From Oscillospiraceae bacterium (GTDB lineage Bacteria > Bacillota > Clostridia > UMGS1840 > HGM11507), in contig SVKB01000011.1 of the NCBI GenBank assembly GCA_015068665.1, positions 4,858 to 68,857 of the forward strand: a stretch of DNA of 64,000 nt, given 5' to 3'. Below the pieces are notes generated by a model that saw nothing but the letters and a program-made list of their open reading frames with translations, was not told the DNA's origin and made no database searches. This document shows positions 4,756 through 63,069 of the stretch, piece by piece (the first letter of the stretch is position 1; each line of letters opens with the position of its first letter). The translations under genes were made by a program, and so were the position numbers.

Positions 4756-4918
4756 ATGTATTACCTCCCGGATTTTTATTTAATAACATTATACAATAAT
4801 ATTTGTAAAATTTCAATAACCATTTAAAAAATTTATTCAAATTTTCATAACGGCTTAATTTTTTGTATACAATAAAAACTGTCAGTAATAAAGTTTTAAA
4901 AAAAATTTAAAAAAACTA

Positions 4919-4947
4919 TTGACAAATCCACTATTTATTGCTATTAT
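4919..4947 (+). promoter_or_regulatory. Sigma-A type promoter of the tRNA operon
   Basis: TTGACA (4919-4924), 17-nt spacer, TATTAT (4942-4947), about 30 nt upstream of the first tRNA. Confidence 0.55.
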
Positions 4948-4976
4948 AATATAGTCAATTTTATGCGTGACGCTAT

Positions 4977-5050
4977 GCGGGTGTAGTTCAATGGTAGAAT
5001 CTCAGCCTTCCAAGCTGATTGCGTGGGTTCGATTCCCATCACCCGCTCCA
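4977..5050 (+). tRNA. tRNA-Gly (anticodon UCC), CCA encoded
   Basis: Hand-folded cloverleaf: acceptor GCGGGTG/CACCCGC, anticodon loop CTTCCAA, T-loop TTCGATT. Confidence 0.9.
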
Positions 5051-5054
5051 ATGT

Positions 5055-5131
<77 letters not shown>

Positions 5132-5138
5132 CTTATAT

Positions 5139-5216
5139 GGTGGGTATAGCTCAGCTGGTTAGAGCACCAGATTGTGGTCCTGGGGGTCGTCGGTTCGAAA
5201 CCGACTACCCACCCCA
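5139..5216 (+). tRNA. tRNA-His (anticodon GUG) with encoded G-1, CCA encoded
   Basis: An extra 5-prime G lies opposite discriminator C. Acceptor GTGGGTA/TACCCAC, anticodon loop TTGTGGT, T-loop TTCGAAA. Confidence 0.85.
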
Positions 5217-5245
5217 AATAAAACTCACCGAAAATATGATGTCGT

Positions 5246-5321
5246 TGGGATGTAGCCAAGTGGTAAGGCACAGGACTTTGACTCCTGCATTTCGCTGGTT
5301 CGAGCCCAGCCATCCCAGCCA
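5246..5321 (+). tRNA. tRNA-Gln (anticodon UUG), CCA encoded
   Basis: Acceptor TGGGATG/CATCCCA, anticodon stem CAGGA/TCCTG with loop CTTTGAC, T-loop TTCGAGC. Confidence 0.9.
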
Positions 5322-5340
5322 TTTTTTTTAAACTTAATAT

Positions 5341-5416
5341 GGGCCATTAGCTCAGTCGGCAGAGCACTTGACTTTTAATCAAGGTGTCCGCGGTTCGAAT
5401 CCGCGATGGCTCACCA
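5341..5416 (+). tRNA. tRNA-Lys (anticodon UUU), CCA encoded
   Basis: Acceptor GGGCCAT/ATGGCTC, anticodon stem CTTGA/TCAAG with loop CTTTTAA, T-loop TTCGAAT. Confidence 0.9.
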
Positions 5417-5419
5417 GAA

Positions 5420-5448
5420 AAAAGCACTTCGTAAGAAGTGCTTTTTTC
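5420..5448 (+). terminator. Intrinsic terminator of the tRNA operon
   Basis: AGCACTTC-GTAA-GAAGTGCT followed by TTTTT. Confidence 0.75.
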
Positions 5449-5745
5449 AATGAAATAAATCCTTTCAGGATTTGTGAAATACCCTTCGGGCGTGAAATAT
5501 TGCTTCGCAATATGAAATACGCCTTCGGCGTGTGATAAAGGATTTATTTTATTTCACAGAAAACTTTAGTTTTCTATTTCACAATTTACGAAGTAAATTA
5601 TTTCATATCAACGAAGTTGATATTTCATTAAATATTGACAATTCCACCTGTATGAAATATTGCTTCGCAATATGAAAAGGCACTAAACAAAAATTGTTTA
5701 GTGCCCGTAAGCCCGCAGGCGTATAAATAGATACGTCAAGGGTTT
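5449..5745. repeat. TGAAAT/ATTTCA dyad bead array plus R-like hairpin
   Basis: The word TGAAAT occurs at 5451, 5475, 5493 and 5513 (degenerate TGATAA at 5533), each followed by a different small hairpin (AAATCC..GGATTT, CCCTTCGGG, ATTGCTTCGCAAT, ACGCCTTCGGCGT). ATTTCA then occurs at 5551, 5576, 5600 and 5623 with other hairpins. The 25-nt TGAAATATTGCTTCGCAATATGAAA is duplicated at 5653. Confidence 0.8.
5674..5705 (-). terminator. Probable intrinsic terminator of typA
   Basis: 12-bp perfect stem GGCACTAAACAA/TTGTTTAGTGCC (5679-5705), followed on the minus strand by TTTTC. Confidence 0.55.
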
Positions 5746-11398: not shown

Positions 11399-11872
11399 AA
11401 CCAGAAGTCAGGTGCGAAGGAAGGCAAGCATGACATATAAATGCAGAATTCAGAGTGCAGAATGCAAAATGATATGCCGCAGGCGGCATAGTGAATTGCA
11501 CCTTACGGTGCGTGAATTGTTATCTATTCGATAACATGAATTGATTTTTACAAATCATGAATTGTTGACTTATGTCAACATTAAGGATAGGACGGATATG
11601 CCATTCGGCATCCGTCCTTTTCTCGTTCCGCAGGAACATATCGAGTGCGAAGCACATATCGAGCAATTTTAATTGCATATCGAGTTTTGCCTTGGCAAAA
11701 CATATCGAAAATCCGAAGGATTTATATCTTATATCTCATCCCTCCTTTTCTTGTTCCGAAGGAACATATCGAGTGCGAAGCACATATCGAGCAATTTTAA
11801 TTGCATATCGAGTTTTGCTTTAGCAAAACATATCGAAAATCCGAAGGATTTATATCTTATATCTCATCCGCC
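11399..11872 (+). repeat. C composite repeat (AGGAA/TGCAGAAT words, TGAATTG bead array, P hairpin, tandem pair of CATATCGAG bead arrays)
   Basis: Starts at the tetR stop codon. TGAATTG occurs 4 times (11492-11570), separated by hairpins CACCTTACGGTG, TTATCTATTCGATAA, ATTTTTACAAAT and TTGACTTATGTCAA. P hairpin at 11589-11618 is followed by TTTTCTCG. The same composite recurs at 39831, 42364, 52326(-) and 62644(-). Confidence 0.85.
11618..11872 (+). repeat. Two tandem CATATCGAG bead arrays (period 128 nt)
   Basis: Each copy is hairpin TTCCNNNGGAA, CATATCGAG, TGCGAAGCA, CATATCGAG, CAATTTTAATTG, CATATCGAG, TTTTGCYTTRGCAAAA, CATATCGAA, AATCCGAAGGATT, then the tail ATATCTTATATCTCATCC. The first CATATCGAG is at 11637 in copy 1 and 11765 in copy 2. 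Confidence 0.85.
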
Positions 11873-12163: not shown

Positions 12164-12316
12164 GTGATATTCTTTGCTGCGCAAAGAGTGATATGATTGC
12201 CGACGGCATTCGTGATATTAAAACCTACGGTTTTAGTGATATTTTATTCGCCTTTTAAAACTCGCTAAGCGAATAACACCCGGTGTTAGCCGAATATCAC
12301 TGCGTAGCAATATCAC
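12164..12316. repeat. GTGATAT/ATATCAC dyad bead array
   Basis: GTGATAT at 12164, 12188, 12212 and 12236, each followed by a different hairpin. Then ATAACAC at 12273 and ATATCAC at 12294 and 12310. Confidence 0.8.
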
Positions 12317-12384
12317 TCGCCGCAAGGCGAATAAAACTGCCCAAGTGTCCTTAGGAACACTTGGGCAAAGGCAGACACTTTTTT

Positions 12385-15640: not shown

Positions 15641-15647
15641 ATAAAAA

Positions 15648-15673
15648 GGGGCTGTAAATTTATTTACAGCCCC
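15648..15673 (-). terminator. Terminator hairpin GGGGCTGTAAAT-TT-ATTTACAGCCCC at the 3-prime end of S1
   Basis: 12-bp stem followed on the minus strand by TTTTTAT. The same hairpin occurs at 20147, 25006 and 53475. Confidence 0.7.
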
Positions 15674-15925
15674 TAAAACAATTCAGAGGGGATAGGAAAA
15701 AATCTTCAGAATGGATAAACTTAGCCAAAATCTTTGATTTTGGGTCACCCGAAGGCGTATTAGATACGTCGAGTGGCTAAGTTTATTCATAACCAAAAAC
15801 TTAAATTTTAAAGATTTTTCTAAAATCTTTACCTCTTTAATGGATAACTTGATAAGTTTCTCTATCAAAATCGTTGATACATCTTGTTTTTGGTGGTCTG
15901 GAGTTTTTTTACATTCCCGTTTTTA
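15674..15925 (-). repeat. S element copy 1 (body), 3-prime UTR of the 1291-aa gene
   Basis: Near-identical to 25032-25282 and inverse to 19870-20146. Contains nested hairpins (outer GGATAAACTTAGCC/GGCTAAGTTTATTC, AAAATCTTTGATTTT, CGTATTAGATACG, AGATTTTTCTAAAATCT, ACCAAAAAC..GTTTTTGGT). Confidence 0.85.
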
Positions 15926-19869: not shown

Positions 19870-20146
19870 AAAAATGGGGATGTAAAAAAACTCCAGACCA
19901 CCAAAAACAAGATTTATCAACGATTTTGATAGAGAAACTTATCAAATTAGCCGTCGAAGAGCTATCCGACGGCTAACTATTAAAAAGGTAAAGATTTTAG
20001 AAAAATCTTTAAAATTTAAGTTTTTGGTTATGAATAAACTTAGCCGCTCGACGTATCTAATACGCCTTCGGGTGACCCAAAATCAAAGATTTTGGCTAAG
20101 TTTATCCATTCTGAAGATTTTTTCCTATCCCCTCTGAATTGTTTTA
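19870..20146 (+). repeat. S element copy 2 (body), inverted relative to copies 1 and 3
   Basis: Reverse complement of the S1/S3 body. Carries an additional 22-nt TA-flanked palindrome at 19951-19972. Confidence 0.85.
19951..19972. mobile_element. Minimal TA-flanked palindromic insertion (fused MITE ends)
   Basis: TA-GCCGTCGAAGAGCTATCCGACGGC-TA. It is absent from the equivalent position of S1 and S3 (which have a single TTA there). Its sequence equals the outer part of the 52536-52809 MITE terminal repeats. Confidence 0.5.
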
Positions 20147-20182
20147 GGGGCTGTAAATAAATTTACAGCCCCATTTTTTATA
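20147..20182 (+). terminator. Terminator hairpin of S2 (GGGGCTGTAAAT-AA-ATTTACAGCCCC + ATTTTTTAT)
   Basis: The hairpin plus T-tract reads on the plus strand, convergent with the 1560-aa gene whose stop is at 20186. Confidence 0.6.
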
Positions 20183-24930: not shown

Positions 24931-25005
24931 TTGGATTATTATTCGGTGGATTGGACTATCGTGTAAATTACAAATTACCAACGTCCTTCATTTCTCAATA
25001 AAAAA

Positions 25006-25031
25006 GGGGCTGTAAATTTATTTACAGCCCC
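25006..25031 (-). terminator. Terminator hairpin at the 3-prime end of S3 (terminates rny transcript)
   Basis: GGGGCTGTAAATTTATTTACAGCCCC followed on the minus strand by TTTTTTATT. Confidence 0.7.
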
Positions 25032-25282
25032 TAAAACAATTCAGAGGGGATAGGAAAAAATCTTCAGAATGGATAAACTTAGCCAAAATCTTTGATTTTG
25101 GGTCACCCGAAGGCGTATTAGATACGTCGAGTGGCTAAGTTTATTCATAACCAAAAACTTAAATTTTAAAGATTTTTCTAAAATCTTTACCTTTTTAATG
25201 GTTAATTTGATAAGTTTCTCTATCAAAATCGTTGACACATCTTGTTTTTGGTGGTCTGGAGTTTTTTACATTCCCGTTTTTA
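25032..25282 (-). repeat. S element copy 3 (body), 3-prime UTR of rny
   Basis: Begins 1 nt after the rny stop codon. Its shadow ORF 25041..25238 differs from the S1 shadow ORF 15683..15868 at only 2 of 60 codons. Confidence 0.85.
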
Positions 25283-27129: not shown

Positions 27130-27316
27130 GCGGGAACCGTCGCCACAGCCTTCTCCTTGAGGAGAAGGTGTCAGCGATAGCTGACGGATGAGGTGTAAGA
27201 TATAAATCCCTACGGGATTTTCGATATGTTTTGCTAAAGCAAAACTCGATATGCAATTAAAATTGCTCGATATGTGCTTCGCACTCGATATGTTGCCTTT
27301 CGGCAACGAGAAAAAG
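27130..27316 (-). repeat. CATATCGAG bead array plus V module (inverse orientation on plus strand)
   Basis: The plus strand shows V (GCCTTCTCCTTGAGGAGAAGGTG-TCAGCGATAGCTGA-CGGATGAGGTG, 27148-27195). It is followed by AAATCCCTACGGGATT, TTCGATATG, TTTTGCTAAAGCAAAA, CTCGATATG, CAATTAAAATTG, CTCGATATG, TGCTTCGCA, CTCGATATG, TTGCCTTTCGGCAA. Confidence 0.85.
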
Positions 27317-27344
27317 AACCGACGATAGTAGCATGTCGGTTCTT
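27314..27344 (-). terminator. Intrinsic terminator of the BMP lipoprotein gene
   Basis: AAGAACCGAC-loop-GTCGGTTCTT followed on the minus strand by TTTCTCG, which is also the first word of the bead array. Confidence 0.6.
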
Positions 27345-31479: not shown

Positions 31480-33144
31480 ATGTCTAAAAAAACACTTAAA
31501 ATAATACCGCTTGGCGGTCTTAACGAAATCGGTAAGAACATTACCGCTTTTGAGTATGGAAACGATATCATCGTTTTAGACTGCGGAATAGCCTTCCCGG
31601 ATGAGGAAATGCTGGGAATTGACCTGGTTATTCCCGACTTCAGTTATCTTATTAAAAACAAGGATAAGGTAAGAGCACTTGTTATCACTCACGGTCATGA
31701 GGACCATATAGGTGCAATTCCCTTCTTCTTAAAGGAAATAAATGTTCCCGTTTACGGAACAAGACTGACCTTAGGGCTTGTTGAGCATAAGCTTTATGAG
31801 CATAATATCCTGTCAACCACAAAGCTTAACAAGGTTTCGGCAGGAGATACGGTGCGATTCGGAGAAATCACCGTTGAATTTATACGAACAAACCACTCTA
31901 TTGCAGATGCCTGCGCCATAGCATTTCACACACCTGTCGGCATAATCCTTCACACAGGAGACTTTAAAATCGATCCAACACCCGTTACAGGTAAAATGCT
32001 TGACCTTGCAAGATTTGCAGAGCTGGGCAAACAGGGGATAACCCTATTGATGTCGGACAGCACCAATGCTGAAAGACAGGGCTACACCATGTCTGAAAGC
32101 ACCATCGGAGGAACCCTGGACGATATATTTATGCAGAATAAAAAGAGCAGAATAATCGTTGCCACTTTTGCTTCCAATATCCACCGTATGCAGCAGATTA
32201 TTGATGCGGCGCATAAAACGGGAAGAAAGGTTGCGGTTTCGGGAAGAAGTATGGAAAATATTCTTACCGTTGCAATAGAGCTTGGATATATGAAGGTGCC
32301 GCCCGGTGTGCTTGTGGATATAGATGCAATATCGAAATACAATAAAAACCAGACGGTTATAATTACTACAGGCTCCCAGGGTGAGCCCATGAGCGCCCTT
32401 TACCGTATGGCTTATTCCGACCATAAGAAAATTGAAATAACAAACGGTGATGTGGTAGTTGTTTCCGCATCCCCCATTCCGGGAAATGAAAAATTCATTT
32501 CAAGAGTAATAAACGAGCTTTTCCGCAAGGGGGCAAAGGTTATTTACGATGCCATGGCTGATATTCACGTTTCGGGCCATGCCTGTCAGGAAGAGCTGAA
32601 GCTTATTTTAGGTCTTTGCCAGCCTAAATATTTTATGCCGGTTCACGGTGAATACCGTCATCTTATAAAGCATAAGGAGCTTGCCGAAAAGGTGGGTATA
32701 AGTGAAAAGAATATTTTCATTGCCGATATAGGTAATATCCTTGAAATTTCGGGGAAAACCGCTAAGTTAAACGGCACCGTTACCTCGGGAAGAGTATTTG
32801 TGGACGGACTTGGCGTAGGTGATGTGGGTAATATCGTTATCCGTGACCGTAAGCACCTGTCTCAGTTCGGATTGCTTGTAATTGTTGTTACCATTTCTTC
32901 AACCGAGAAAAAGATAGTTGCAGGCCCCGATATTATTTCAAGAGGCTTTGTCTATGTAAGAGAAAGCGAAATGCTTATGCAGGGCGCAAAGGATATCTCT
33001 CTTGCAACCATTGAAAAATGTCTGTCCCGCGGTACGATTGACTGGTCCAGTATGAAGGCAGATGTAAGAAGTGAGGTTGCGGACTTTATATTTAAGGAAA
33101 CAAAGAGAAGACCGATGATATTGCCAGTGATAATGGAAGTCTGA
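31480..33144 (+). CDS. rnj: Ribonuclease J
   Basis: 554 aa. LKIIPLGGLNEIGKN, the metallo-beta-lactamase HGHEDHIGA motif and a beta-CASP region. Confidence 0.95.
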   Translation: MSKKTLKIIPLGGLNEIGKNITAFEYGNDIIVLDCGIAFPDEEMLGIDLVIPDFSYLIKNKDKVRALVITHGHEDHIGAIPFFLKEINVPVYGTRLTLGLVEHKLYEHNILSTTKLNKVSAGDTVRFGEITVEFIRTNHSIADACAIAFHTPVGIILHTGDFKIDPTPVTGKMLDLARFAELGKQGITLLMSDSTNAERQGYTMSESTIGGTLDDIFMQNKKSRIIVATFASNIHRMQQIIDAAHKTGRKVAVSGRSMENILTVAIELGYMKVPPGVLVDIDAISKYNKNQTVIITTGSQGEPMSALYRMAYSDHKKIEITNGDVVVVSASPIPGNEKFISRVINELFRKGAKVIYDAMADIHVSGHACQEELKLILGLCQPKYFMPVHGEYRHLIKHKELAEKVGISEKNIFIADIGNILEISGKTAKLNGTVTSGRVFVDGLGVGDVGNIVIRDRKHLSQFGLLVIVVTISSTEKKIVAGPDIISRGFVYVRESEMLMQGAKDISLATIEKCLSRGTIDWSSMKADVRSEVADFIFKETKRRPMILPVIMEV

Positions 33145-33967
33145 AAGTAAAAAGCGTAAAAAAAGCGTTAAAATTCCCCGGACCATGCAAAGCAATATAT
33201 ATATAAAGAAAGCGATGTACTTATTCCGTAATTAAATGTTAAAGGCGCTTGATAAAATAAGGAATAAATCGCAAAGCGATTTATGGAATTAAAAGCTTTG
33301 CATTTTGAACGAAAATCCCCTCTCGATGTATTTAATACACCTTCGGGTGATTTTCGTTCAATCCAAGAAATTTTTCCTGCTTTTCGTTTGATATTGGCGG
33401 CATCGAGCCACCAATATCAAAAAAAGCGTAAAATCAACAAACCATGTAAAGCAAAATAATATAAATAGAAAATGTGTCTGTATCATATACAGGCACATTT
33501 ATTTGTAGTTTACATTACTATATTAAGGTATAAATTTGCAAGCAAATTTATGAATTTAAATGCTTTGCGTTATAAATGAAACCAGCCATCTGAGAGTTAT
33601 CAAAATTCGTTTTTTAAAAAATTCCAACGGAACCTATATCGCTTTAAAATTGTGATTTTTCAAGGCGGAAGGCTTTGGTAATACGAGGTATGCCAAAGGC
33701 GACAACGAAGAAAAAGCCTATTTTTAAGTGATATAGACGGATTTGGATAGCTCTTAGATGGCTGCAGATGTATCTCATACACCTTCGGGTGATTTTCGTT
33801 CAATCCAAGAAATTTTTCTTATCTTTCGTTTGATATTGGCGGCATCGAGCCACCAATATCAAAAAAGCGTAAATTCAACAAACCATGCAAAGCAAAATAA
33901 TATAAATAGAAAATGGGCGTGTCTCAATAAGTGATTTTTCACTCAATCGAGGCAACGCCCTTTGCTT
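33145..33967 (+). repeat. T-unit composite (three T-type units, R junction modules, one embedded MITE)
   Basis: Units start with AAAAAGCGT(T)AAAAT at about 33149, 33421 and 33863. They contain the 14-bp hairpin AAATGTGTCTGTAT-CAT-ATACAGGCACATTT (33470-33500), AAATTTGCAAGCAAATTT, an R junction (33309-33357) and the GCATCGAGCC-loop hairpin (33379-33427, 33826-33870). Confidence 0.8.
33583..33764. mobile_element. MITE-like element with 27-nt terminal inverted repeats (23/27 match)
   Basis: Left end CAGCCATCTGAGAGTTATCAAAATTCG. Reverse complement of the right end CAGCCATCTAAGAGCTATCCAAATCCG. It interrupts an R module (compare the intact copy at 62195-62241). Its interior is homologous in inverse orientation to 52565-52680. 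Confidence 0.55.
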
Positions 33968-37211: not shown

Positions 37212-38593
37212 CAAATAAGGAAGAACTTTTATTAATGAAAAGGGAGCAGGGCTACGATTCGGTAACCCAGTCACAGAAAAAGAAGATTTTCGATTTTTCC
37301 GAGGGCTATAAGGAATTTATAGGAAGGGCAAAAACCGAAAGAGTTTTTGTTAAAGACACAATTGAACTTCTAAAAAAGGAAGGCTTTAAGAAATTTTCTC
37401 CCGATATGAAATTAAAGCAGGGAGACAAGGTATATTTTGAAAACAGAAAAAGAGCTCTGATTGCAGTAAAAATGGGTAAAAAAAGCTTAAGTGAAGGGGT
37501 AAGTATGATAGGTGCGCATATTGACTCACCAAGACTTGACTTAAAGCCGATTCCCCTGTATGAGGCTGAAAATACCCTTTATATCAAAACCCACTATTAC
37601 GGCGGAATTAAAAAATATCAGTGGCCTGTAATTCCGCTTTCAATGTTCGGTACGGTTGCTCTTAAAAACGGTAAAACCGTTGATATTGTTATAGGCGAAG
37701 ACGAAAAGGATCCGATTTTCGTTATTACCGATATTCTTCCACATCTCGGAAATACCCAGTACAAGAAAACTCCTGCCGAGATTATCCATCCCGAACAGCT
37801 TAATGCTATCGGCGCTACCATTCCTTATGAGGATAAGGAGGCTTCGGGCAGAGTAAAATTAAACTTTCTAAATATTATCAATAAGAAATATAATATTACC
37901 GAGGAGGATTTTATTTCCGCGGAAATAACTCTTGTTCCTGCTCTTAAGCCAAGGGATGCGGCTATTGATTCAAGCCTTGTTGCCGCTTACGGTCAGGATG
38001 ACAGGGTTTGTGCATACACAGGTCTTATGGCACTTCTTGACTCTAAGGAAGAAGCAAAAACCCAGCTTCTTTTGCTTTCGGATAAGGAAGAGGTAGGCTC
38101 AATGGGAAATACCGGTATGCAGTCAAAATTCTTCGAATTCACATTAGAAGCACTTTGCGAAAATCAGGGAGTAAAATTAAGAGAGGCCCTGTGGAATACC
38201 GAATGTTTATCAGCCGATGTTTGTGCCGCTTATGACCCTAATTTCCCCGAAGTTTATGAAAAGAACAACTCGGTGTTCTTAAACGGAGGCGTTTCTCTTA
38301 TGAAATATTCGGGTGCAAGGGGTAAATCGGGCACCTCGGATGCAAGCGCAGAGCTTTTGGGAAAAATAAGAGGTCTTTTTGATAAGGCTTCGGTTAAATG
38401 GCAGATTGGCGAGCTTGGAAAAACCGATGAAGGCGGCGGCGGAACAATTGCACAGTTCGTGGCAAACCTGGGATGTGAGGTAATCGACTGCGGAGTTGCC
38501 CTTCTTTCAATGCACTCACCCTATGAGGTTGCTTCAAAGTATGATATTTATATGACATATAAGGCATATAAAACCTTTTTTGAAAAAGCATAG
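37208..38593 (+). CDS. M18 family aminopeptidase
   Basis: About 461 aa. GAHIDSPRLDLKP, DDRVCAY, DKEEVGS and LSMHSP motifs of aspartyl/M18 aminopeptidases. The alternative ATG at 37199 is also possible. Confidence 0.85.
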   Translation: MTNKEELLLMKREQGYDSVTQSQKKKIFDFSEGYKEFIGRAKTERVFVKDTIELLKKEGFKKFSPDMKLKQGDKVYFENRKRALIAVKMGKKSLSEGVSMIGAHIDSPRLDLKPIPLYEAENTLYIKTHYYGGIKKYQWPVIPLSMFGTVALKNGKTVDIVIGEDEKDPIFVITDILPHLGNTQYKKTPAEIIHPEQLNAIGATIPYEDKEASGRVKLNFLNIINKKYNITEEDFISAEITLVPALKPRDAAIDSSLVAAYGQDDRVCAYTGLMALLDSKEEAKTQLLLLSDKEEVGSMGNTGMQSKFFEFTLEALCENQGVKLREALWNTECLSADVCAAYDPNFPEVYEKNNSVFLNGGVSLMKYSGARGKSGTSDASAELLGKIRGLFDKASVKWQIGELGKTDEGGGGTIAQFVANLGCEVIDCGVALLSMHSPYEVASKYDIYMTYKAYKTFFEKA

Positions 38594-38935
38594 CCTTCTT
38601 AATGAGGAGAAGGTGTCAGCGATAGCTGACGGATGAGATATAAGATATAAATCCTTCGGATTTTCGATATGTTTTGCTAAAGCAAAACTCGATATGTGCT
38701 TCGCACTCGATATGTTGTCTTGCGACAACGAGACAGGTAGGGGCGTTTATTACCGCCCGAAAGCCCTCCTTGCCTAAAGGAGGGGGGACCGCTTTAGCGG
38801 TGGGAGGATTTTTGAAAAGGTGTAATATAAATCCCTATGGGATTTTCGATATGTTTTGCTAAAGCAAAACTCGATATGTGCTTCGCACTCGATATGTTCC
38901 TTTGGAACTCGATATGTTCCTTCGGAACGAGATAA
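38593..38935 (-). repeat. V module, two CATATCGAG bead arrays (inverse orientation) and a GC-rich W5 module forming the whole aminopeptidase-era spacer
   Basis: V at 38593-38637 overlaps the TAG stop. Array 1 is at 38631-38733 and array 2 at 38821-38935; both lack the CAATTTTAATTG unit. W5 at 38740-38828 equals the inverse of 42621-42700. Confidence 0.85.
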
Positions 38936-38948
38936 AAGGAGAGCTAAA

Positions 38949-39830
38949 ATGAAAAGCGGATTTATAAGCGTAGTAGGAAGAACAAATGCAGGGAAGTCAA
39001 CACTGGTCAATTCTCTTATCGGAGAAAAAATTGCAATTATCTCCAATAAGCCCCAGACCACCCGCTACAGAATTATGGGAATAAGAAATGAAGAGGAGTG
39101 TCAGATAATTTTTACCGACACTCCGGGAATACATAAGCCCAAAACCAGACTTGGCGACTTTATGATAAATGAAGCCAACGAGGCTCTTAACGATACCGAT
39201 GCGGCTCTTCTTGTAATCGAGCCGGTTGACAATGTGGGAATAAGTGAGAAAAAGCTTATTGAAATCCTTAAAAAGTCAGGTATTCCCGCAATACTTGTTA
39301 TCAATAAAATTGATACAATTAAAAAGGAAAGCCTGTTTCCCATAATTGAAAAATACTCCTCCGAGTTTGATTTCGATGCAATCATTCCCGTAAGCGCAAA
39401 AACAGGAGACGGAGTTTCGGTTTTACTTGAAGAAATAAAAAAATACTTAACTGAAGGTCCTATGTTCTTCCCCGAAGATATGGTAACCGATTCACCCATA
39501 AAGCAAAGATTATCCGAAATTGTAAGAGAAAAGCTTTTATGGTCTCTTGATAAGGAAATACCTCACGGGATTGCAATAGAGGTTACTAAAATGGATGAGG
39601 ACAAAAATAAAGTAGCCCTTGATATTACCATTTACTGTGAAAAGCAGTCCCATAAGGGAATTATTATCGGTAAGGGCGGAGAGCTTTTAAAAACAGTTGG
39701 TACAAGAGCCCGTTACGATATGGAAAAGCTTCTCGGAAAAAAAGTCGGTCTTACTCTTTGGGTTAAGGTCAAGGAGGGCTGGCGTGACAGCGTGATGCTT
39801 CTTAAAAACTTCGGGTTTAATGAGGAATAA
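38949..39830 (+). CDS. era: GTPase Era
   Basis: MKSGFISVVGRTNAGKSTLVNSL..DTPG..NKID..KH domain. ATG 38949 lies behind AAAGGAGAG. The 31 extra codons in the track (start 38856) are translated repeat sequence. Confidence 0.95.
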   Translation: MKSGFISVVGRTNAGKSTLVNSLIGEKIAIISNKPQTTRYRIMGIRNEEECQIIFTDTPGIHKPKTRLGDFMINEANEALNDTDAALLVIEPVDNVGISEKKLIEILKKSGIPAILVINKIDTIKKESLFPIIEKYSSEFDFDAIIPVSAKTGDGVSVLLEEIKKYLTEGPMFFPEDMVTDSPIKQRLSEIVREKLLWSLDKEIPHGIAIEVTKMDEDKNKVALDITIYCEKQSHKGIIIGKGGELLKTVGTRARYDMEKLLGKKVGLTLWVKVKEGWRDSVMLLKNFGFNEE

Positions 39831-40281
39831 TTTGAAAATCAGGAATTAGGAATGAAGTAAGGCAAGCATGACATATAAATGCAGAATTCAGAGTGCAGAA
39901 TGCAGAATGATATGCCGCAAGCGGCATAGTGAATTGCACCTTTCGGTGCATGAATTGTTATCAGCTTGATAACATGAATTGATTTTTACAAATCATGAAT
40001 TGTTGACTTATGTCAACATTAAGGATAGGACGGATATGCCCGAAAGTGGTTAATGAATTTAGTTGCAGTATCATATTTCTTTTTATTTAATGGACTACAC
40101 TTCATTACACCTCATCCGAGTTGCTATGCAACCCACCTTCTCCTCAAGGAGAAGGCTTTGGCATCCGTCCTTTTCTCGTTGCCGAAAGGCAACATATCGA
40201 GTGCGAAGCACATATCGAGCAATTTTAATTGCATATCGAGTTTTGCTTTAGCAAAACATATCGAAAATCCCAAAGGGATTT
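39831..40281 (+). repeat. C composite repeat starting at the era stop codon, with P hairpin split by an insertion
   Basis: AGGAAT and TGCAGAAT words, then TGAATTG 4 times. P left arm at 40027-40040 and P right arm at 40160-40171. Complete 5-hairpin CATATCGAG array at 40171-40281. Confidence 0.85.
40041..40159. repeat. 119-nt insertion in the loop of the P hairpin, carrying a V module (40108-40156)
   Basis: Intact P elsewhere reads GGACGGATATGCC-ATTC-GGCATCCGTCC. Here the arms are separated by sequence ending in CACCTCATCCG-AGTTGCTATGCAAC-CCACCTTCTCCTCAAGGAGAAGGC. Confidence 0.7.
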
Positions 40282-40318
40282 AAAAAAAGCGCCAAACGCT
40301 TTCGTTTGGTGCTTTTTA
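40282..40318. terminator. Bidirectional intrinsic terminator (era / 40337 gene)
   Basis: AAAAAAA-GCGCCAAACG-CTTT-CGTTTGGTGC-TTTTT between convergent genes. Confidence 0.7.
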
Positions 40319-41424: not shown

Positions 41425-41440
41425 CGGCTTGGGTATCGGT

Positions 41441-41551
41441 TCTTTCTCGTTGCCGAAAGGCAACATATCGAGTTCCAAAGGAACATATCGAGTGCGAAGC
41501 ACATATCGAGTTTTGCCTTGGCAAAGCATATCGAAAATCCCAAAGGGATTT
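41441..41551 (+). repeat. CATATCGAG bead array (variant with extra TTCCAAAGGAA unit, lacking CAATTTTAATTG unit)
   Basis: TTTCTCG, TTGCCGAAAGGCAA, w, TTCCAAAGGAA, w, TGCGAAGCA, w, TTTTGCCTTGGCAAAG, CATATCGAA, AATCCCAAAGGGATT (w = CATATCGAG). Confidence 0.85.
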
Positions 41552-41578
41552 AAAAAAAGCACCAATTGGTGCTTTTTT
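41552..41578. terminator. Bidirectional intrinsic terminator (XRE gene / yesL)
   Basis: AAAAAAA-GCACCAATTGGTGC-TTTTTT, a perfect palindrome between convergent genes. Confidence 0.7.
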
Positions 41579-42334: not shown

Positions 42335-42363
42335 AAATACCTCTTTAGAAATCACAAATAAAG

Positions 42364-42625
42364 GATAATATGCCACAAGTGGCATAATGAATTGCACCTT
42401 GCGGTGCGTGAATTGTTATCAATCTGATAACATGAATTGATTTTTTAAAAATCATGAATTGTTGACTTATGTCAACATTAAGGATAGGACGGATATGCCA
42501 TTCGGCATCCGTCCTTTTCTCGTTGCCGTAAGGCAACATATCGAGTTCCAAAGGAACATATCGAGTGCGAAGCACATATCGAGTTTGCAAGGCAAACATA
42601 TCGAAAATCCCATAGGGATTTATAT
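42364..42625 (+). repeat. C composite repeat, 5-prime truncated (TGAATTG array, intact P hairpin 42486-42515, CATATCGAG array 42515-42625)
   Basis: Same module order as 11476-11750. The array has TTGCCGTAAGGCAA and TTCCAAAGGAA units and lacks the CAATTTTAATTG unit. Confidence 0.85.
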
Positions 42626-42740
42626 TACACCTTTTCAAAAATCCTCCCACCGCTAAAGCGGTCCCCCCCTCCTTTAGGCAAGGAGGGCTTTGCAATGTGC
42701 CTGCCCTTCGGCAAGCACATTATTTTTCTATATATCCCCT
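42626..42740. repeat. GC-rich W5 module and variant long hairpin AATGTGCCTGCC-CTTC-GGCAAGCACATT
   Basis: 42621-42700 is the inverse of 38740-38828. The hairpin at 42686-42718 shares outer stem bases with the AAATGTG..CACATTT hairpin of the T units but has a different inner stem. Confidence 0.65.
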
Positions 42741-42965
42741 GCTTTGCGATTTATTCCTTATTTTATCAAGCGCCTTTAACATTAGTGTTATTCCGTACCT
42801 TGTACGGAGTGATATTTTTGATAAATCAAAAGTGTTATTGAAACCTGACGGTTTCAGTGGTATTTTATCCGCCTTTATTAAGCTGTGCGAAGCACAATAC
42901 CACTGCGCAGCAATATCACTTGCTAACAGCAAATATCACTCGCCGTAAGGCGAATAAAACTGCAA
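42741..42965 (-). repeat. GTGATAT dyad bead array (Q), inverse copy of 62340-62575
   Basis: Shadow ORFs 42720..42932 and 62379..62582 translate identically for about 63 aa, and 42697..42948 versus 62363..62617 for about 68 aa. The DNA is therefore essentially identical. Confidence 0.85.
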
Positions 42966-43262
42966 AGCTCCGCTTTGCAAAGTCCGGGGAATTTTACATC
43001 TTTTTTATGGCGGTGGCTCGATGCCTCCGCCATAAAACGAAAGATAGGAAAAATTTCTTGGATTGGACGAAAATCACCCGAAGGTGTATTAAATACATCG
43101 AGAGGGGATTTTCGTTCAAAATGCAAAGCTTTTAATTCCATAAATCGCTTTGCGATTTATTCCTTATTTTATCAAGTGCCTTTAACATTTAATTACGGTA
43201 TAAGTACATCGCTTTCTTTATATATATTGCTTTGCATGGTCCGGGGAATTTTTACATCTTTC
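42966..43262 (-). repeat. T-type unit, inverse near-copy of 33170-33430, ending 5 nt from the stop of the 904-aa gene
   Basis: Contains an R junction (43067-43115) and a GCATCGAGCC-loop hairpin with an altered but still complementary stem (43003-43037). Confidence 0.8.
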
Positions 43263-43267
43263 TAATT

Positions 43268-51930: not shown

Positions 51931-52325
51931 AAAAGCATTAAAATTCCCCGGACCACGCAAAGCAAAATAATATAAAGAGTAAAATGTGTCTGTATCATAT
52001 ACAGGCACATTTATTTATAGTTTACATTACTATATTAAGGTATAAATTTGCAAGCAAATTTATGAATTAAAAGCTTTGCGTTTTGAACGAAATCAGCCAC
52101 TCGACGTACTTAGTACGCCTTCGGGTTCCACCCCTTCGGGGCTGAATTCGTCCAATCCAAGAAATTTTTTCTGCTTTTCGTTTGATATTGGCGGCATCGA
52201 GCCACCAATATCAAAAAAAGCGTTAAATCGACAAACCATACAGAGCAAAATAGTATAAATAGTAAATGTGTCTGTATCATATACAGGCACATTTTGTTTT
52301 AGTATACATTACTATATTAAGGTAT
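51931..52325 (+). repeat. Two T-type units starting at the stop codon of the AraC-type gene
   Basis: AAAAGCATTAAAATTCCCCGGACCACGCAAAGC. 14-bp hairpins at 51982-52012 and 52264-52294. R junction with an extra CCCCTTCGGGG hairpin at 52087-52151. GCATCGAGCC-loop hairpin at about 52174-52220. Confidence 0.8.
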
Positions 52326-52899
52326 AAATCCTTCGGATTGTCGATATGTTTTGCTAAAGGCAAAACTCGATATGCAATTAAAATTGCTCGATATGTGCTT
52401 CGCACTCGATATGTTGCCTTTCGGCAACAAGAAAAAAGGACGGATGCCGAATGGCATATCCGTCCTATCCTTAATGTTGACATAAGTCAACAATTCATGA
52501 TTTTTTTAAAATCAATTCATGTTATCGAATTGATAGCCGTCGGAGAGCTATCCGAACTCGCCTCAAACCCTTAAAAATAGGCTTTTTCTTTGTTGTCGGT
52601 TTCGATATACCTTGTATTATCAAAACCTTCCGCCTTGAAAAATCACAATTTTAAAGGGTTATAGGTTCTATAAGAATTTTTAAATTAGGAAATTTTTAGA
52701 TAGAATGAGGCAAAAACGCAGGTAATATTTCGGATATTACCGAGGATTTTAACGATATTATATCAAAAATTTACAATTTAAAAACGAGTTCGGATAACTT
52801 TCCGACGGCTACCAATTCACGCACCGCAAGGTGCAATTCACTATGCCGCTTGCGGCATATCATTCTGCATTCTGCACTCTGAATTCTGCATTTATAATT
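52326..52899 (-). repeat. C composite repeat (inverse), co-oriented with and abutting the stop of the HAD gene, interrupted by a MITE
   Basis: On the plus strand: a complete 5-unit CTCGATATG array at 52326-52437, P at 52437-52467, then the CAATTCA array interrupted at 52536-52809, then ATTCTGCA words up to 52899. Confidence 0.85.
52536..52809. mobile_element. MITE-like element, ~25-nt terminal inverted repeats, flanked by TA
   Basis: TA-GCCGTCGGAGAGCTATCCGAACTCG ... CGAGTTCGGATAACTTTCCGACGGC-TA (2 mismatches). It is inserted in the loop/arm of the GTTATC..GATAAC hairpin, which is intact at 62838-62856 and 11519-11536. No ORF inside. Confidence 0.6.
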
Positions 52900-53457: not shown

Positions 53458-53474
53458 ATTAAACCTCATAAAGA

Positions 53475-53500
53475 GGGGCTGTAAATAAATTTACAGCCCC
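53475..53500 (-). terminator. Terminator hairpin GGGGCTGTAAAT-AA-ATTTACAGCCCC downstream of the M23 peptidase gene
   Basis: Same 26-nt hairpin as at the S-element ends. The minus strand continues TCTTTAT. Confidence 0.55.
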
Positions 53501-62037: not shown

Positions 62038-62317
62038 AAAAGCGTAAAAATTACCCAGACCACGCAAAGCAAAATAATATAAATAGTAAATGTGTCTGTA
62101 TAATATACAGGCACATTTATTTATAGTTTACATTAATAAATTAAGGTATAAATTTGCAAGCAAATTTATGTTTTTAAATGCTTTGCGTTATAAATGAAAA
62201 ACACCTCTCGATGTATCTCATACACCTTCGGGTGTTTTTCATTTATTCCAGGAAATTTTTCCTGCTTTTCGTTTGATATTGGCGGCATCGAGCCACCAAT
62301 ATCAAAAAAAGCGTTAA
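62038..62317 (+). repeat. T-type unit starting at the yycI-like stop codon
   Basis: AAAAAGCGTAAAAATT... 14-bp hairpin at 62088-62118, AAATTTGCAAGCAAATTT, R junction at 62195-62241 (outer stem TGAAAAAC/GTTTTTCA), GCATCGAGCC-loop hairpin at about 62264-62312. Confidence 0.8.
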
Positions 62318-62575
62318 AATTCCCCGGACTTTGCAAAGCGGAGCTTTGCAGTTTTATTCGCCTTACGGCGAGTGATATTTGCTGTTAGCAAGTGATATTG
62401 CTGCGCAGTGGTATTGTGCTTCGCACAGCTTAATAAAGGCGGATAAAATACCACTGAAACCGTCAGGTTTCAATAACACTTTTGATTTATCAAAAATATC
62501 ACTCCGTACAAGGTACGGAATAACACTAATGTTAAAGGCGCTTGATAAAATAAGGAATAAATCGCAAAGCAAAAT
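62318..62575 (+). repeat. GTGATAT dyad bead array (Q)
   Basis: GTGATAT at 62372 and 62392, GTGGTAT at 62408. Then ATAACAC at 62473, ATATCAC at 62496 and ATAACAC at 62520. All intervening hairpins differ from one another. Confidence 0.85.
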
Positions 62576-62643
62576 AATATAAAGAGTAAAATGTGTCTGT
62601 ATCATATACAGGCACATTTATTTATAGTCTATATTAATATATT
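62576..62643 (+). repeat. Partial T unit with 14-bp hairpin (62589-62619)
   Basis: AAAATAATATAAAGAGTAAAATGTGTCTGTATCATATACAGGCACATTTATTTATAG, as in 51965-52020. Confidence 0.75.
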
Positions 62644-62978
62644 AAGATATAAATCATTCGGATTTTCGATATGTTTTGCTAAAGCAAAACTCGATATGCA
62701 ATTAAAATTGCTCGATATGTGCTTCGCACTCGATATGTTCCTTCGGAACGAGAAAAGGACGGATGCCGAATGGCATATCCGTCCTATCCTTAATGTTGAC
62801 ATAAGTCAACAATTCATGATTTGTAAAAATCAATTCATGTTATCAAGCTGATAACAATTCATGCACCGCAAGGTGCAATTCACTATGCCACTTGCGACAT
62901 ATCATTTTGCATTCTGCACTCTGAATTCTGCATTTATATGGCTTGCCGGCCTTCATTCCTCATTCCTGATTTTAAAAT
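62644..62978 (-). repeat. C composite repeat (inverse), uninterrupted reference copy
   Basis: On the plus strand: 5-unit CTCGATATG array, P at 62755-62785, CAATTCA 4 times, ATTCTGCA words, CATTCCT words. Confidence 0.85.
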
Positions 62979-63069
62979 GTTCTTCATTTGCCATTTGCAA
63001 TTTCCCCTTGCTATTTCACCCGTTTTATGCTACTATGAGAATGAATAAATATAAGTGGTGGAATTTGGT

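Follow-up and report, generated by a model that had tools for sequence, protein, structure and literature searches.

Seven complete copies and one interrupted copy of a large repeat unit lie in the 64,000-nt stretch of DNA analyzed here (hereafter, the window), and six of the seven complete units begin 0 to 16 nt past a stop codon (Table 1). Unit R1 starts 16 nt past the stop codon (33142-33144) of an RNase J gene, as identified from its ORF and Pfam; S3 starts 7 nt past the stop codon of RNase Y, and S1 starts about 10 nt past that of a gene for a 1291-aa surface protein. S2 is the sole window copy without a co-oriented gene before it: it lies antisense, between two genes. The three S copies are mutually 97% identical. 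The interrupted unit, R1b, holds a nested insert, module X, which sits exactly between the 5' strand of helix P1 and the apex. The intergenic repeats of the window are modular and mosaic.

Table 1. Repeat units and their parts in the window (positions are those of the window)
Feature	Position	Strand	Basis or remark
Core matches	15746-, 20047+, 25104-, 33322+, 33764+, 43075-, 52100+, 62207+	as signed	pattern search of window
Unit S1 with P4 hairpin	15682..15923	-	nhmmer E 5.8e-46; CM 88.7 bits
Intrinsic terminator after S1, AGGGGCTGTAAAT..ATTTACAGCCCCT then T run	15647..15674	-	resembles P0
Unit S2, extra hairpin in Pa loop	19870..20138	+	terminator at ~20146-20173
Unit S3	25040..25280	-	terminator at ~25005-25032
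R1, P0 5' strand AAAAGCGTTAAAATT	33161..33175	+	alignment column mapping, MFE fold, P0 covariation
R1, conserved junction motif CCCCGGACC	33176..33184	+	R-type form of C.CCAGACC
R1, Pa 5' strand ATGCAAAGC	33185..33193	+	pairs with 33295-33303; Pa covariation
R1, variable Pa loop	33194..33294	+	
R1, H0 in Pa loop, ATAAATCGC-AAA-GCGATTTAT	33264-33284	+	
R1, Pa 3' strand GCTTTGCAT	33295..33303	+	
R1, P1 5' strand	33305..33320	+	contains ACGAAAATC at 33309-33317
R1, apex (R-module core)	33322..33347	+	CUC, 7-bp GAUGUAU-UUA-AUACACC, UUC bulge, GGG
R1, P1 3' strand GATTTTCGTTCAA	33349..33361	+	
R1, P0 3' strand TCCAAGAAATTTTTCCTGCTTTT, unit end	33362..33384	+	
Unit R1b, 5' half (P0, Pa, H0, P1 5' strand)	33441..33588	+	92.6% identical to 51952-52099
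Nested insert, module X	33589..33763	+	~18-nt inverted repeats at borders
Unit R1b, apex, P1 3' strand, P0 3' strand	33764..33826	+	
Unit R2	43038..43265	-	starts 6 nt past stop of 904-aa surface protein gene
Unit R3, CCCC-UUCG-GGGG P4 hairpin	51937..52179	+	starts directly past AraC-type regulator stop codon
Unit R4	62038..62264	+	starts at first base past yycI stop codon

The sequence-only reading had singled out a short element within R1, the R module (33309-33357, ACGAAAATC-ccct-CTCGATGTATTTAATACACCTTCGGGT-GATTTTCGT), as a conserved core that recurs across the window inside an outer stem that differs between copies and always pairs. The recurrence was confirmed: the pattern CTCGAYGTATNNNATACRCCTTCGGGTG, with up to three mismatches allowed, gave eight matches in the window and none in shuffled sequence. 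The outer stems also pair as drawn. That of the copy at 62195 is TGAAAAAC/GTTTTTCA; the stem at 52087 is ACGAAATCAG/CTGAATTCGT, with one A.A mismatch and an added CCCC-TTCG-GGGG hairpin; and GAATAAACTTAGCC/GGCTAAGTTTATCC is common to the three S copies. The exception is the copy at 33764, in which the 5' half of the stem is absent and an insert of about 175 nt stands at that place. The window holds only about four independent stem variants, and the case for covariation therefore rests on 102 distinct copies from elsewhere, fetched from other genomes and metagenomes with a pattern that left the apex unconstrained. Both sides had changed in 9 of the 15 pairs of the outer stem, helix P1, in these sequences (8 of 13 in the 56 full-length units considered below). 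Examples of single P1 pairs are CG in 64 and UA in 36 sequences; UA in 58, CG in 26 and GC in 6; and GC in 57 and AU in 32. This covariation collapsed in controls with slid partners. As had been claimed, the outer stem is kept by compensatory change.

The structure enclosed by the stem is not the one first proposed. In the earlier reading, the outer stem, a GUAU/AUAC hairpin and a CACC/GGUG hairpin with a cUUCGg cap meet in a three-way junction of 49 nt that stands by itself. Such a fold can be drawn from the sequence, C(UUCG)G loops are very stable, and the outer stem does covary. However, the pairs of the UUCG-capped hairpin (42-51, 43-50 and 44-49) showed no both-side change in the 102 sequences, and 43-50 was broken in 19 of them. 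Columns 42-44 instead covary with columns 26-28. We observed that the R of RUACRCC pairs with Y (CG in 73 sequences, UA in 21, GC in 3), that the first C of its CC pairs with the A of CUCGA (A.C in 66, GC in 20, CG in 15, AU in 1) and that the second C pairs with G (GC in 100, AU in 1). Since the CC covaries with the 5' side of the other hairpin, the apex is one 7-bp hairpin, GAYGUAY/RUACRCC, set on an invariant CUC/GGG with a 3-nt bulge. A U.G pair is kept in 99 of the 102 sequences. A true three-way junction near the apex is found only in copies with the optional P4 hairpin, and there is none in 33309-33357. In relatives, moreover, the first loop base of UUCG varies among U, G and C, TTCGGG is missing entirely in some, and the R module was never found outside a larger hairpin or unit. 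The 49-nt junction is thus scarcely credible. What survives of the earlier proposal of a functional fold is a strongly conserved core within an RNA fold that is under selection, on the strand that had been named.

Other descriptions of the apex, which is itself a near-palindrome, were considered. MFE folding, like RNAalifold, prefers the register CUCGA/UCGGG with a CCU bulge, which suits the two-thirds of sequences that have A at the second position. It was ruled out as the conserved pairing because the C variants switch their partner to G and the 7-bp register accounts for all types; it is possibly an alternative conformer. A kink-turn consists of a 3-nt bulge followed by tandem sheared G.A/A.G pairs. 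Here, G-C borders the bulge toward the hairpin and C-G plus U.G border it on the other side, all of them Watson-Crick or wobble pairs, and a kink-turn was rejected. The pairs actually present also ruled out a T-loop and a group II domain V-like motif.

Each copy of the R module is embedded in a much longer repeat. We conclude, with high confidence in identity and fold jointly, that a Y-shaped RNA of 225 to 290 nt, typically about 240 nt, carries the module as the invariant apex of its long arm. The unit has three helices, P0, Pa and P1. The closing helix P0 comprises an outer part, an A-run/U-run part and an inner CAGA/UCUG part; in R1, the GGA of the junction motif pairs with UCC at 33362-33364 as inner P0. 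Arm Pa encloses a variable loop and a hairpin, H0. At its tip, arm P1 carries CUC, the 7-bp hairpin, the UUC bulge and GGG, to which the P4 hairpin is sometimes added. H0 was considered as an upstream terminator or a promoter operator and set aside: no consistent promoter accompanies it, and promoter-like matches are at background level.

Alignment of 56 full-length units defined 48 pair positions, which are 92.1% paired. Both-side changes occurred in 35 of the 48 pairs, compared with 21.2 +/- 1.7 in shuffles, none of 500 of which reached 35. The covariation score was 0.329, against 0.134 in shuffles and at most 0.094 with partners slid. All nine pairs of Pa covary, as do the internal helices P1, P2 and P4. 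RNAalifold independently recovered P0, Pa, P1 and the apex, and single-sequence MFE folds took the same Y shape (z = -3.98 and -6.33). A CM that covers less than the full-length unit scored the sense strand at 46-89 bits and the antisense strand at 15-21 bits. The unit is A+T-rich, its unpaired positions are conserved in sequence, and the fold is strongly conserved across lineages. A mutual-information search for extra pseudoknot or tertiary pairs yielded only P4.

Strand and position point the same way as the fold. CC-UNCG-GG loops occur 12 times on the unit strand and never on the mirror strand. A co-oriented ORF lies upstream of 68 of 88 units, and 64 of these 68 (about 73% of the 88) start within -17 to +39 nt of the stop codon of that ORF, with a median of 0. 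The remaining 20 adjoin a divergent gene, often no more than 80 nt from its start codon. Of the downstream neighbors, 43 are convergent and 30 co-oriented; in 28 further cases there is none. A same-strand terminator follows 32 of 73 units, and its 5' arm resembles the P0 5' strand. A terminator would not fit between stop codon and unit; given this and the same-strand terminators, the unit is probably co-transcribed as the 3' end of the upstream gene's mRNA. The 20 units beside a divergent gene and the antisense S2 mean that some copies are not the 3' UTR of an upstream gene.

Relatives of the unit are present in many MAGs of gut, rumen and camel Clostridia and in one phage, whose copy lies exactly between the stop codon of a capsid-like gene and a terminator; cultured phages and plasmids gave no real match. 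One MAG holds more than 20 copies, many of them at contig ends. Tandem units occur, as do nested inserts: another locus, L036, carries an insert homologous to module X at the same site (2686-2959). In a syntenic MAG the unit is missing upstream of spoIIM, and units stand at places where the window carries other repeats. Bursts of near-identical copies suit a selfish element and a host function equally.

Our best reading is that the unit is a proliferating, interspersed, non-coding repeat carried by uncultured Clostridia of gut and rumen and by one or more of their phages. Lying 0 to 16 nt past a stop codon and usually just before an intrinsic terminator, it would thus be made as the 3' end of an mRNA. 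Read-through from the upstream gene would yield the folded RNA, and the fold may then affect, in cis, how the 3' end of the host transcript is protected, processed or terminated. A trans-acting factor encoded at another locus could recognize the RNA by its apex and its three-way junction, both of them invariant. We give this cis 3'-UTR role, with the apex as a putative docking site, a probability of roughly 0.4. Besides the exceptional positions and the bursts of copies noted above, two considerations weigh against it. Among approximately 120 loci, no gene class or family was common to the neighborhoods, only ABC ATPases and a two-component pair recurring, and no protein family stands beside the units as a partner candidate. 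Moreover, since 3'-end protection is already provided by a plain terminator, a fold of 240 nt whose unpaired bases are invariant seems over-engineered for stabilization alone.

Perhaps the host mRNA gains nothing, and the unit is a selfish, non-autonomous mobile element that needs its RNA fold for its own propagation? Its apex and junction would then be recognized by a mobilizing enzyme encoded elsewhere, or be catalytic, and since such an element must be transcribed, its copies would survive only between stop codon and terminator. The near-identical copies within genomes, the assemblies that break at units, the tandem units and the nested insertions at a fixed site all fit, as do the presence/absence differences between related genomes, the phage copy and the strong conservation of the fold across lineages; so does an orientation that tracks the local direction of transcription and not a fixed strand. 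Yet no reverse transcriptase, transposase, integrase or nuclease recurs beside the units at the approximately 120 loci, none of these loci contains an autonomous copy with an ORF or a unit split by an ORF-sized insert, and no direct repeat common to both flanks was visible in the copies inspected by eye. The variable Pa loop is no match for the flanking DNA either (longest common words, 8.5 versus 8.4 in controls), and no two near-identical strains turned up with an empty and a filled site by which an insertion could be defined. We therefore regard the purely selfish element as rather doubtful. Improbable, in our estimate, is the bolder version in which the unit represents a new class of large functional RNA and is mobile in its own right, a protein-less or trans-mobilized "RNA transposon" that would be catalytic or form an RNP through its invariant apex and junction, insert specifically between stop codon and terminator, and spread among gut Clostridia and their phages. 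Slightly more improbable still is that the units are trans-acting RNAs or RNP scaffolds cut from mRNA 3' ends, as 3'-UTR-derived sRNAs are, and released at P0. P0 does join the 5' and 3' ends in the manner of the closing stem of stable RNAs, same-strand terminators are present, size and complexity resemble those of known stable ncRNAs, and tandem units could come from one processed precursor; however, there is no conserved single-stranded seed, the C-rich tail is paired in P0, and it would be unusual for one trans-acting RNA to have hundreds of near-identical genes.

The unit might also act as DNA, as a MITE- or REP-like repeat with P0 as its terminal inverted repeats and with hairpins that a transposase recognizes in DNA or single-stranded DNA form; the apparent covariation would then reflect co-evolving ends of distinct element lineages. 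Each unit is indeed bounded precisely by an imperfect inverted repeat, its flanks are unrelated, it is intergenic and high in copy number, and its apex is near-palindromic. This account is very unlikely, for it does not explain why internal helices covary (all of Pa, P1, P2 and P4), why UNCG loops are confined to one strand, why a U.G pair is conserved or why orientation follows the upstream gene and the T-run terminators downstream, and it meets the same lack of a target-site duplication and of a nearby transposase. We give even less weight, and consider highly unlikely, a riboswitch-like or translation-coupled attenuator in which the P0 3' strand would either form P0 or pair with the terminator 5' arm, a competition that sets read-through. 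It draws on the terminator after many units (..GCTGTAAAAAA-loop-TTTTTTACAGC..), which resembles P0, on the CCCCU of the S copies, which can pair with the AGGGG of the terminator, and on the position of the P0 5' strand, which a ribosome finishing at the stop codon could reach. However, the terminator 5' arm is matched perfectly by the 3' arm of the same terminator, which leaves the alternative pairing weak, and P0 is no closer to the terminator of its own locus than to those of other loci (similarity, 8.0 versus 7.6). Nor do the orientations of the downstream neighbors, the lack of a common gene class among them, the terminators present after fewer than half of the units examined or the dozens to hundreds of copies per genome suit a riboswitch.

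If the fold is real in vivo, it would rank, with 48 pairs and 35 of them compensatory, among the better-supported uncatalogued bacterial RNA structures. It combines riboswitch-sized complexity and invariant unpaired nucleotides with dozens of copies per genome, placement right past stop codons, tandem arrays, nested insertions and a phage copy, which is an unusual mix. From the unit one could learn how the abundant, uncultured Clostridia of gut and rumen complete or label their mRNAs, or one could instead uncover a mobile element that relies on the folding of its RNA. Since units break metagenome assemblies at gene ends, a model of the unit would aid binning and annotation.

We compared the unit with known families. 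No family in Rfam 15 covers the apex or the unit (window at gathering and E<=5; single units at E<=10), and we found no description of this RNA family in the literature. The best Rfam match was RsaE, at 32.9 bits versus a threshold of 79, over the P4-to-terminator part of S copies only. An RsaE/RoxS-type sRNA with a C-rich seed was ruled out, since the tail UUUUUUCCUAUCCCC is the P0 3' strand and covaries with GGGGAUGUAAAAAA. Termination riboswitches share the size class, the closing helix and a multi-helix junction with invariant unpaired bases; in them, as after 32 of 73 units, an intrinsic terminator follows whose 5' arm resembles the closing-helix 5' strand, although in the unit the alternative pairing is weak. 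Unlike them, the unit lies past genes and not before them, has no consistent downstream gene and is present in dozens of copies per genome; no Rfam riboswitch model matched it.

The raiA motif, OLE, ROOL and GOLLD are complex covarying folds of Firmicutes and phages with no established function (PMC10861870, PMC12286853). The unit resembles them as a complex covarying fold in Firmicutes and a phage. To our knowledge, those RNAs occur in single or few copies per genome and have no tie to stop codons; none of their Rfam models matched the unit. Among the traits of a MITE, the unit has terminal inverted repeats, namely P0, which also behaves as an RNA helix; a target-site duplication was not seen by eye, nor was an autonomous relative or transposase in the approximately 120 loci sampled.

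REP elements and BIMEs of Enterobacteriaceae and Pseudomonas are high-copy extragenic hairpins, located 3' of genes or between convergent genes, and REP elements have a reported effect on mRNA stability (PMC3184786). A REP is a G+C-rich single hairpin of about 35 nt with a GTAG/CGTC tag, whereas the unit is seven times longer, A+T-rich and multi-helix. In the REP/RAYT system, palindromes of 20-40 nt flank the gene of the associated RAYT transposase; neither a GTAG/CGTC tag nor a RAYT-like gene was found near any locus examined. BOX elements of Streptococcus pneumoniae are modular and transcribed, with a predicted action at the RNA level (PMC3184786). The intergenic repeats of the window resemble BOX in their modular, mosaic makeup. 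The sequences of BOX and of the SPRITE elements of the same species are unrelated to the unit, and neither family is described in PMC3184786 with a multi-helix covarying fold across lineages.

The bcr1 element of the Bacillus cereus group is a chromosomal, non-coding, multi-copy repeat of about 155 bp whose distribution is not conserved between strains; it is transcribed, its RNA secondary structure is kept by compensatory base changes, its two stem-loops are cruciform-like, 5-bp direct repeats flank it, and it belongs to one species group (PMC3184786). The unit shows the same traits in being chromosomal, non-coding, multi-copy, patchy between genomes and, as judged from its position, probably transcribed, with compensatory changes that keep the RNA structure. 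Unlike bcr1, it is 225-290 nt long, shows no direct repeats and is built around a three-way junction with invariant unpaired nucleotides and an invariant apex, and it spans many Clostridia lineages, placed tightly past stop codons.

The sequence-only reading had given the sequence of the R module (33309-33357) correctly, and in every true match the core of this module caps a long helix that varies in sequence among lineages. Allowing up to 3 mismatches, we found eight matches to the core pattern in the 64-kb window and none in dinucleotide-preserving shuffles. Scanning one genome per species returned 36 loci, nearly all hosted by uncultured Clostridia, Oscillospiraceae, Acutalibacteraceae or Eubacteriales MAGs; a single MAG held more than 20 copies of the core, many at contig ends. 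Conservation extends ~150 nt upstream and ~60 nt downstream of the core and then ends abruptly, delimiting a larger unit. The window, a Clostridia-type chromosome of 39% G+C with housekeeping genes (RNase Y, RNase J, spoIIM, yycI and a tRNA cluster), contains seven complete units and one interrupted unit, as detected with an HMM built from full-length units. The same seven were recovered by a short-calibrated covariance model of the arm, whose E-values are rough; they scored 46-89 bits, and the opposite strand 15-21 bits. Because our alignments stem from pattern-anchored retrieval, they under-sample more divergent relatives.

Read 5' to 3', the unit begins with (G)GGGAUGUAAAAAA, C.CCAGACC and strand Pa, continues through a variable loop containing hairpin H0, strand Pa', a U and P1, and ends with the apex (the R-module core), an optional hairpin P4, P1', UCUG... 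and UUUUUUCCUAUCCCC. Three helices close this Y shape. P0 joins the two ends and falls into three parts: outer, A-run/U-run and inner (CAGA/UCUG). Pa joins the segment after CAGACC to the one directly before P1, and P1 has the apex at its tip. We also found a shorter form that lacks Pa, often in tandem. We conclude that the R and S elements of the window are two subfamilies of one unit.

RNAalifold, applied to 56 full-length units, predicted P0, Pa, P1 and the apex independently. In our own full structure of 48 pairs, 92.1% of pair positions were paired, compared with 81.0% in shuffles. Changes on both sides were seen at 35 pairs (21.2 +/- 1.7 in shuffles, none of 500 reaching 35), and the covariation score was 0.329, against 0.134 when shuffled and at most 0.094 with partners slid. 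Pa covaried at all nine of its pairs. A mutual-information scan added the P4 helix and found no pseudoknot, and folding single sequences reproduced the Y shape (z-scores -3.98 and -6.33).

For an unbiased test of the apex, we scanned metagenomes with a pattern anchored on the P1 flanks only; 84 of the 85 loci retrieved were true. In an alignment of 102 distinct arms, P1 showed compensatory changes at 9 of 15 pairs, and sliding the partners collapsed the pairing. The earlier claim that this outer stem differs between copies while pairing is maintained thus held, and every stem quoted for it was found, the one at 52087 with one A.A mismatch. In the copy at 33764 the 5' half of the stem is missing. 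The apex is a 7-bp hairpin with a loop of 3-5 nt that is not conserved in sequence. Pair 1 is G-C in 100 arms and A-U in 1; pair 2 is A.C in 66, G-C in 20, C-G in 15 and A-U in 1; pair 3 is C-G in 73, U-A in 21 and G-C in 3; pairs 4-6 are nearly invariant; and the closing pair 7 is C-G in 72 and U-A in 30. The second hairpin of the sequence-only reading, capped by UUCG, had to be abandoned: it showed no compensatory change, was broken 19 times at one pair and reuses three bases of the apex hairpin. Its "UUCG" is better read as a bulge, UUC, that varies at the first base, together with the G that opens an invariant GGG; opposite this GGG lies CUC, likewise invariant. The CUC/GGG helix includes a U.G pair, present in 99 of 102 sequences; since the helix is invariant, covariation speaks neither for nor against it.

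Several lines point to RNA on the strand read here. Twelve P4 loops on this strand have the form CC-UNCG-GG and none has its mirror image, and the U.G wobble is conserved. Of 73 units, 32 have an intrinsic terminator with a T run behind them on the same strand, and orientation tracks the neighbouring gene rather than a fixed DNA strand. Mismatch counting alone cannot decide the strand, because two conserved A.C mismatches become G.U on the opposite one.

Where do the units lie relative to genes? Of the 88 full-length units that have an ORF upstream, 68 point the same way as this ORF, and 64 of these start within -17 to +39 nt of the stop codon (median 0; the HMM start lies ~9 nt before P0). 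The gap from stop codon to P0 is 0-16 nt for six of the seven window units, which follow RNase Y, RNase J, an AraC-type regulator, yycI and two surface proteins. This leaves no room for a terminator, so that polymerase leaving the gene would have to transcribe the unit, and we infer co-transcription with the upstream gene. A ribosome standing on the stop codon would also lie over the 5' strand of P0. The downstream neighbour is more often convergent (43) than co-oriented (30), and no recurrent protein family was found near the units; these observations count against both a role as 5' leader or riboswitch and a mobilising gene linked to the unit.

Over 293 nt, the three S copies share 97% identity, and units are also arranged in tandem. 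Assemblies of the window's own organism stop just after RNase J. A syntenic MAG (72-85% protein identity) has no unit upstream of spoIIM and carries units after the 131-aa gene, a place taken up by other repeats in the window. One unit sits in a genuine phage, exactly between the stop codon of a capsid-like gene and a terminator. This small, tailed phage encodes a terminase large subunit, a holin, an amidase and a weak capsid-domain match just under the Pfam cut-off, and it was assembled from three samples at 99.8% identity. Among the loci fetched from elsewhere (L122-L126 and many of L002-L036), public assemblies of the window organism and related MAGs end at most ~200 nt from unit-followed genes; evidently, the repeat is so common and so uniform that short-read assemblies break at it.

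The interrupted unit, R1b, carries its insert, which is bounded by inverted repeats, after the 5' strand of P1 and before the apex. The insert could represent either an additional, optional arm or a second element targeting that site. A homologous insert occupies the identical site in another organism; the two share a 73-nt stretch of 77% identity.

Modular repeats crowd the window's intergenic regions (table). The Gut-1-like copies resemble arrays of short variable hairpins with GUGAUAUU between them, and two lie directly 3' of R-type units. The ~128-nt repeat units are short hairpins, many with UUCG-type loops, spaced by the motif CTCGATATG. The terminator downstream of the unit, ..GCTGTAAAAAA-loop-TTTTTTACAGC.., resembles a P0 helix without insertion at many metagenome loci. 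The conserved hairpin that follows R-type units runs into an A run with no T run and is therefore no canonical terminator on this strand. After units R2 and R4, the unit start motif (GCGTTAAAATTCCCCGGAC) appears a second time, joined to a hairpin resembling a terminator and to a Gut-1-like array. A 31-nt perfect hairpin, followed by ATTT, occurs in some R units, where it lies in the Pa loop, and also elsewhere; the terminator scan flagged it.

Coordinates of repeats, hairpins, inserts and the phage unit
Feature	Position	Strand	Remark
Gut-1 RNA (RF01706, 70 bits)	5448-5523	+	directly 3' of five-tRNA cluster (4977-5416)
Gut-1-like, weaker, sub-threshold	5546-5630; 12268-12339; 42892-42962	-	
Gut-1-like, weaker, sub-threshold	5609-5683; 62349-62419	+	
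Other intergenic repeat	11609-11869	- (reading)	tandem pair of ~128-nt units
Modules related to 11609-11869	27142-27317; 38589-38940; 39819-40295; 41426-41565; 42362-42691; 52241-52896; 62563-62988		
Array like 11609-11869	L015 1-110, 3690-3740		syntenic MAG
S-unit terminator hairpin GGGGCTGTAAAT..ATTTACAGCCCC	15647-15674; 20146-20173; 25005-25032; 53474-53500		last one alone, after another gene
Hairpin TTTGATATTGGCGG-CATCGAG-CCACCAATATCAAA	33387-33422; equivalent sites after R2, R3, R4 (e.g. 62275-62312)		
Perfect hairpin AAATGTGTCTGTATCATATACAGGCACATTT	33470-33500; 62085-62121; 62589-62619; near 51985-52015		last one in R3
R1b insert	33589-33763		~175 nt; both inserts ~175-270 nt, 12-18-nt inverted repeats
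Homologous insert	L036 2686-2959		
Phage unit	L129 ~4795-5000	-	contigs L127-L129 (IMG/VR), same metagenomes as window organism

What, then, is the unit? Searching the window and isolated units against Rfam 15 gave no family at threshold for it. A relationship to RsaE was rejected (32.9 bits against a threshold of 79), the C-rich tail being paired rather than free. Nothing similar was found in cultured phages and plasmids, and a literature search returned no description of the family. The evidence shows a proliferating, non-coding, strand-specific predicted RNA fold at the 3' end of genes. Our leading reading, tentative at a probability of about 0.4, is a cis-acting 3'-UTR module in which the invariant apex and junction would form a recognition surface for a trans-acting factor, and which would alter the fate of the host transcript's 3' end. 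Its main rival, which we regard as rather unlikely, is a selfish element that needs its own RNA fold to spread; the two readings are not mutually exclusive. We give less weight to a released stable RNA, to an attenuator using the P0-like terminator, and to a MITE- or REP-like repeat acting at the DNA level.

In lifestyle the unit is similar to bcr1, REP, BOX and SPRITE (PMC3184786), but it differs from this group in its multi-helix fold, its invariant unpaired bases, its conservation across lineages and its lack of direct repeats. In size and complexity it is similar to riboswitch aptamers and orphan large ncRNAs, from which it is set apart by its copy number and its position at the stop codon.
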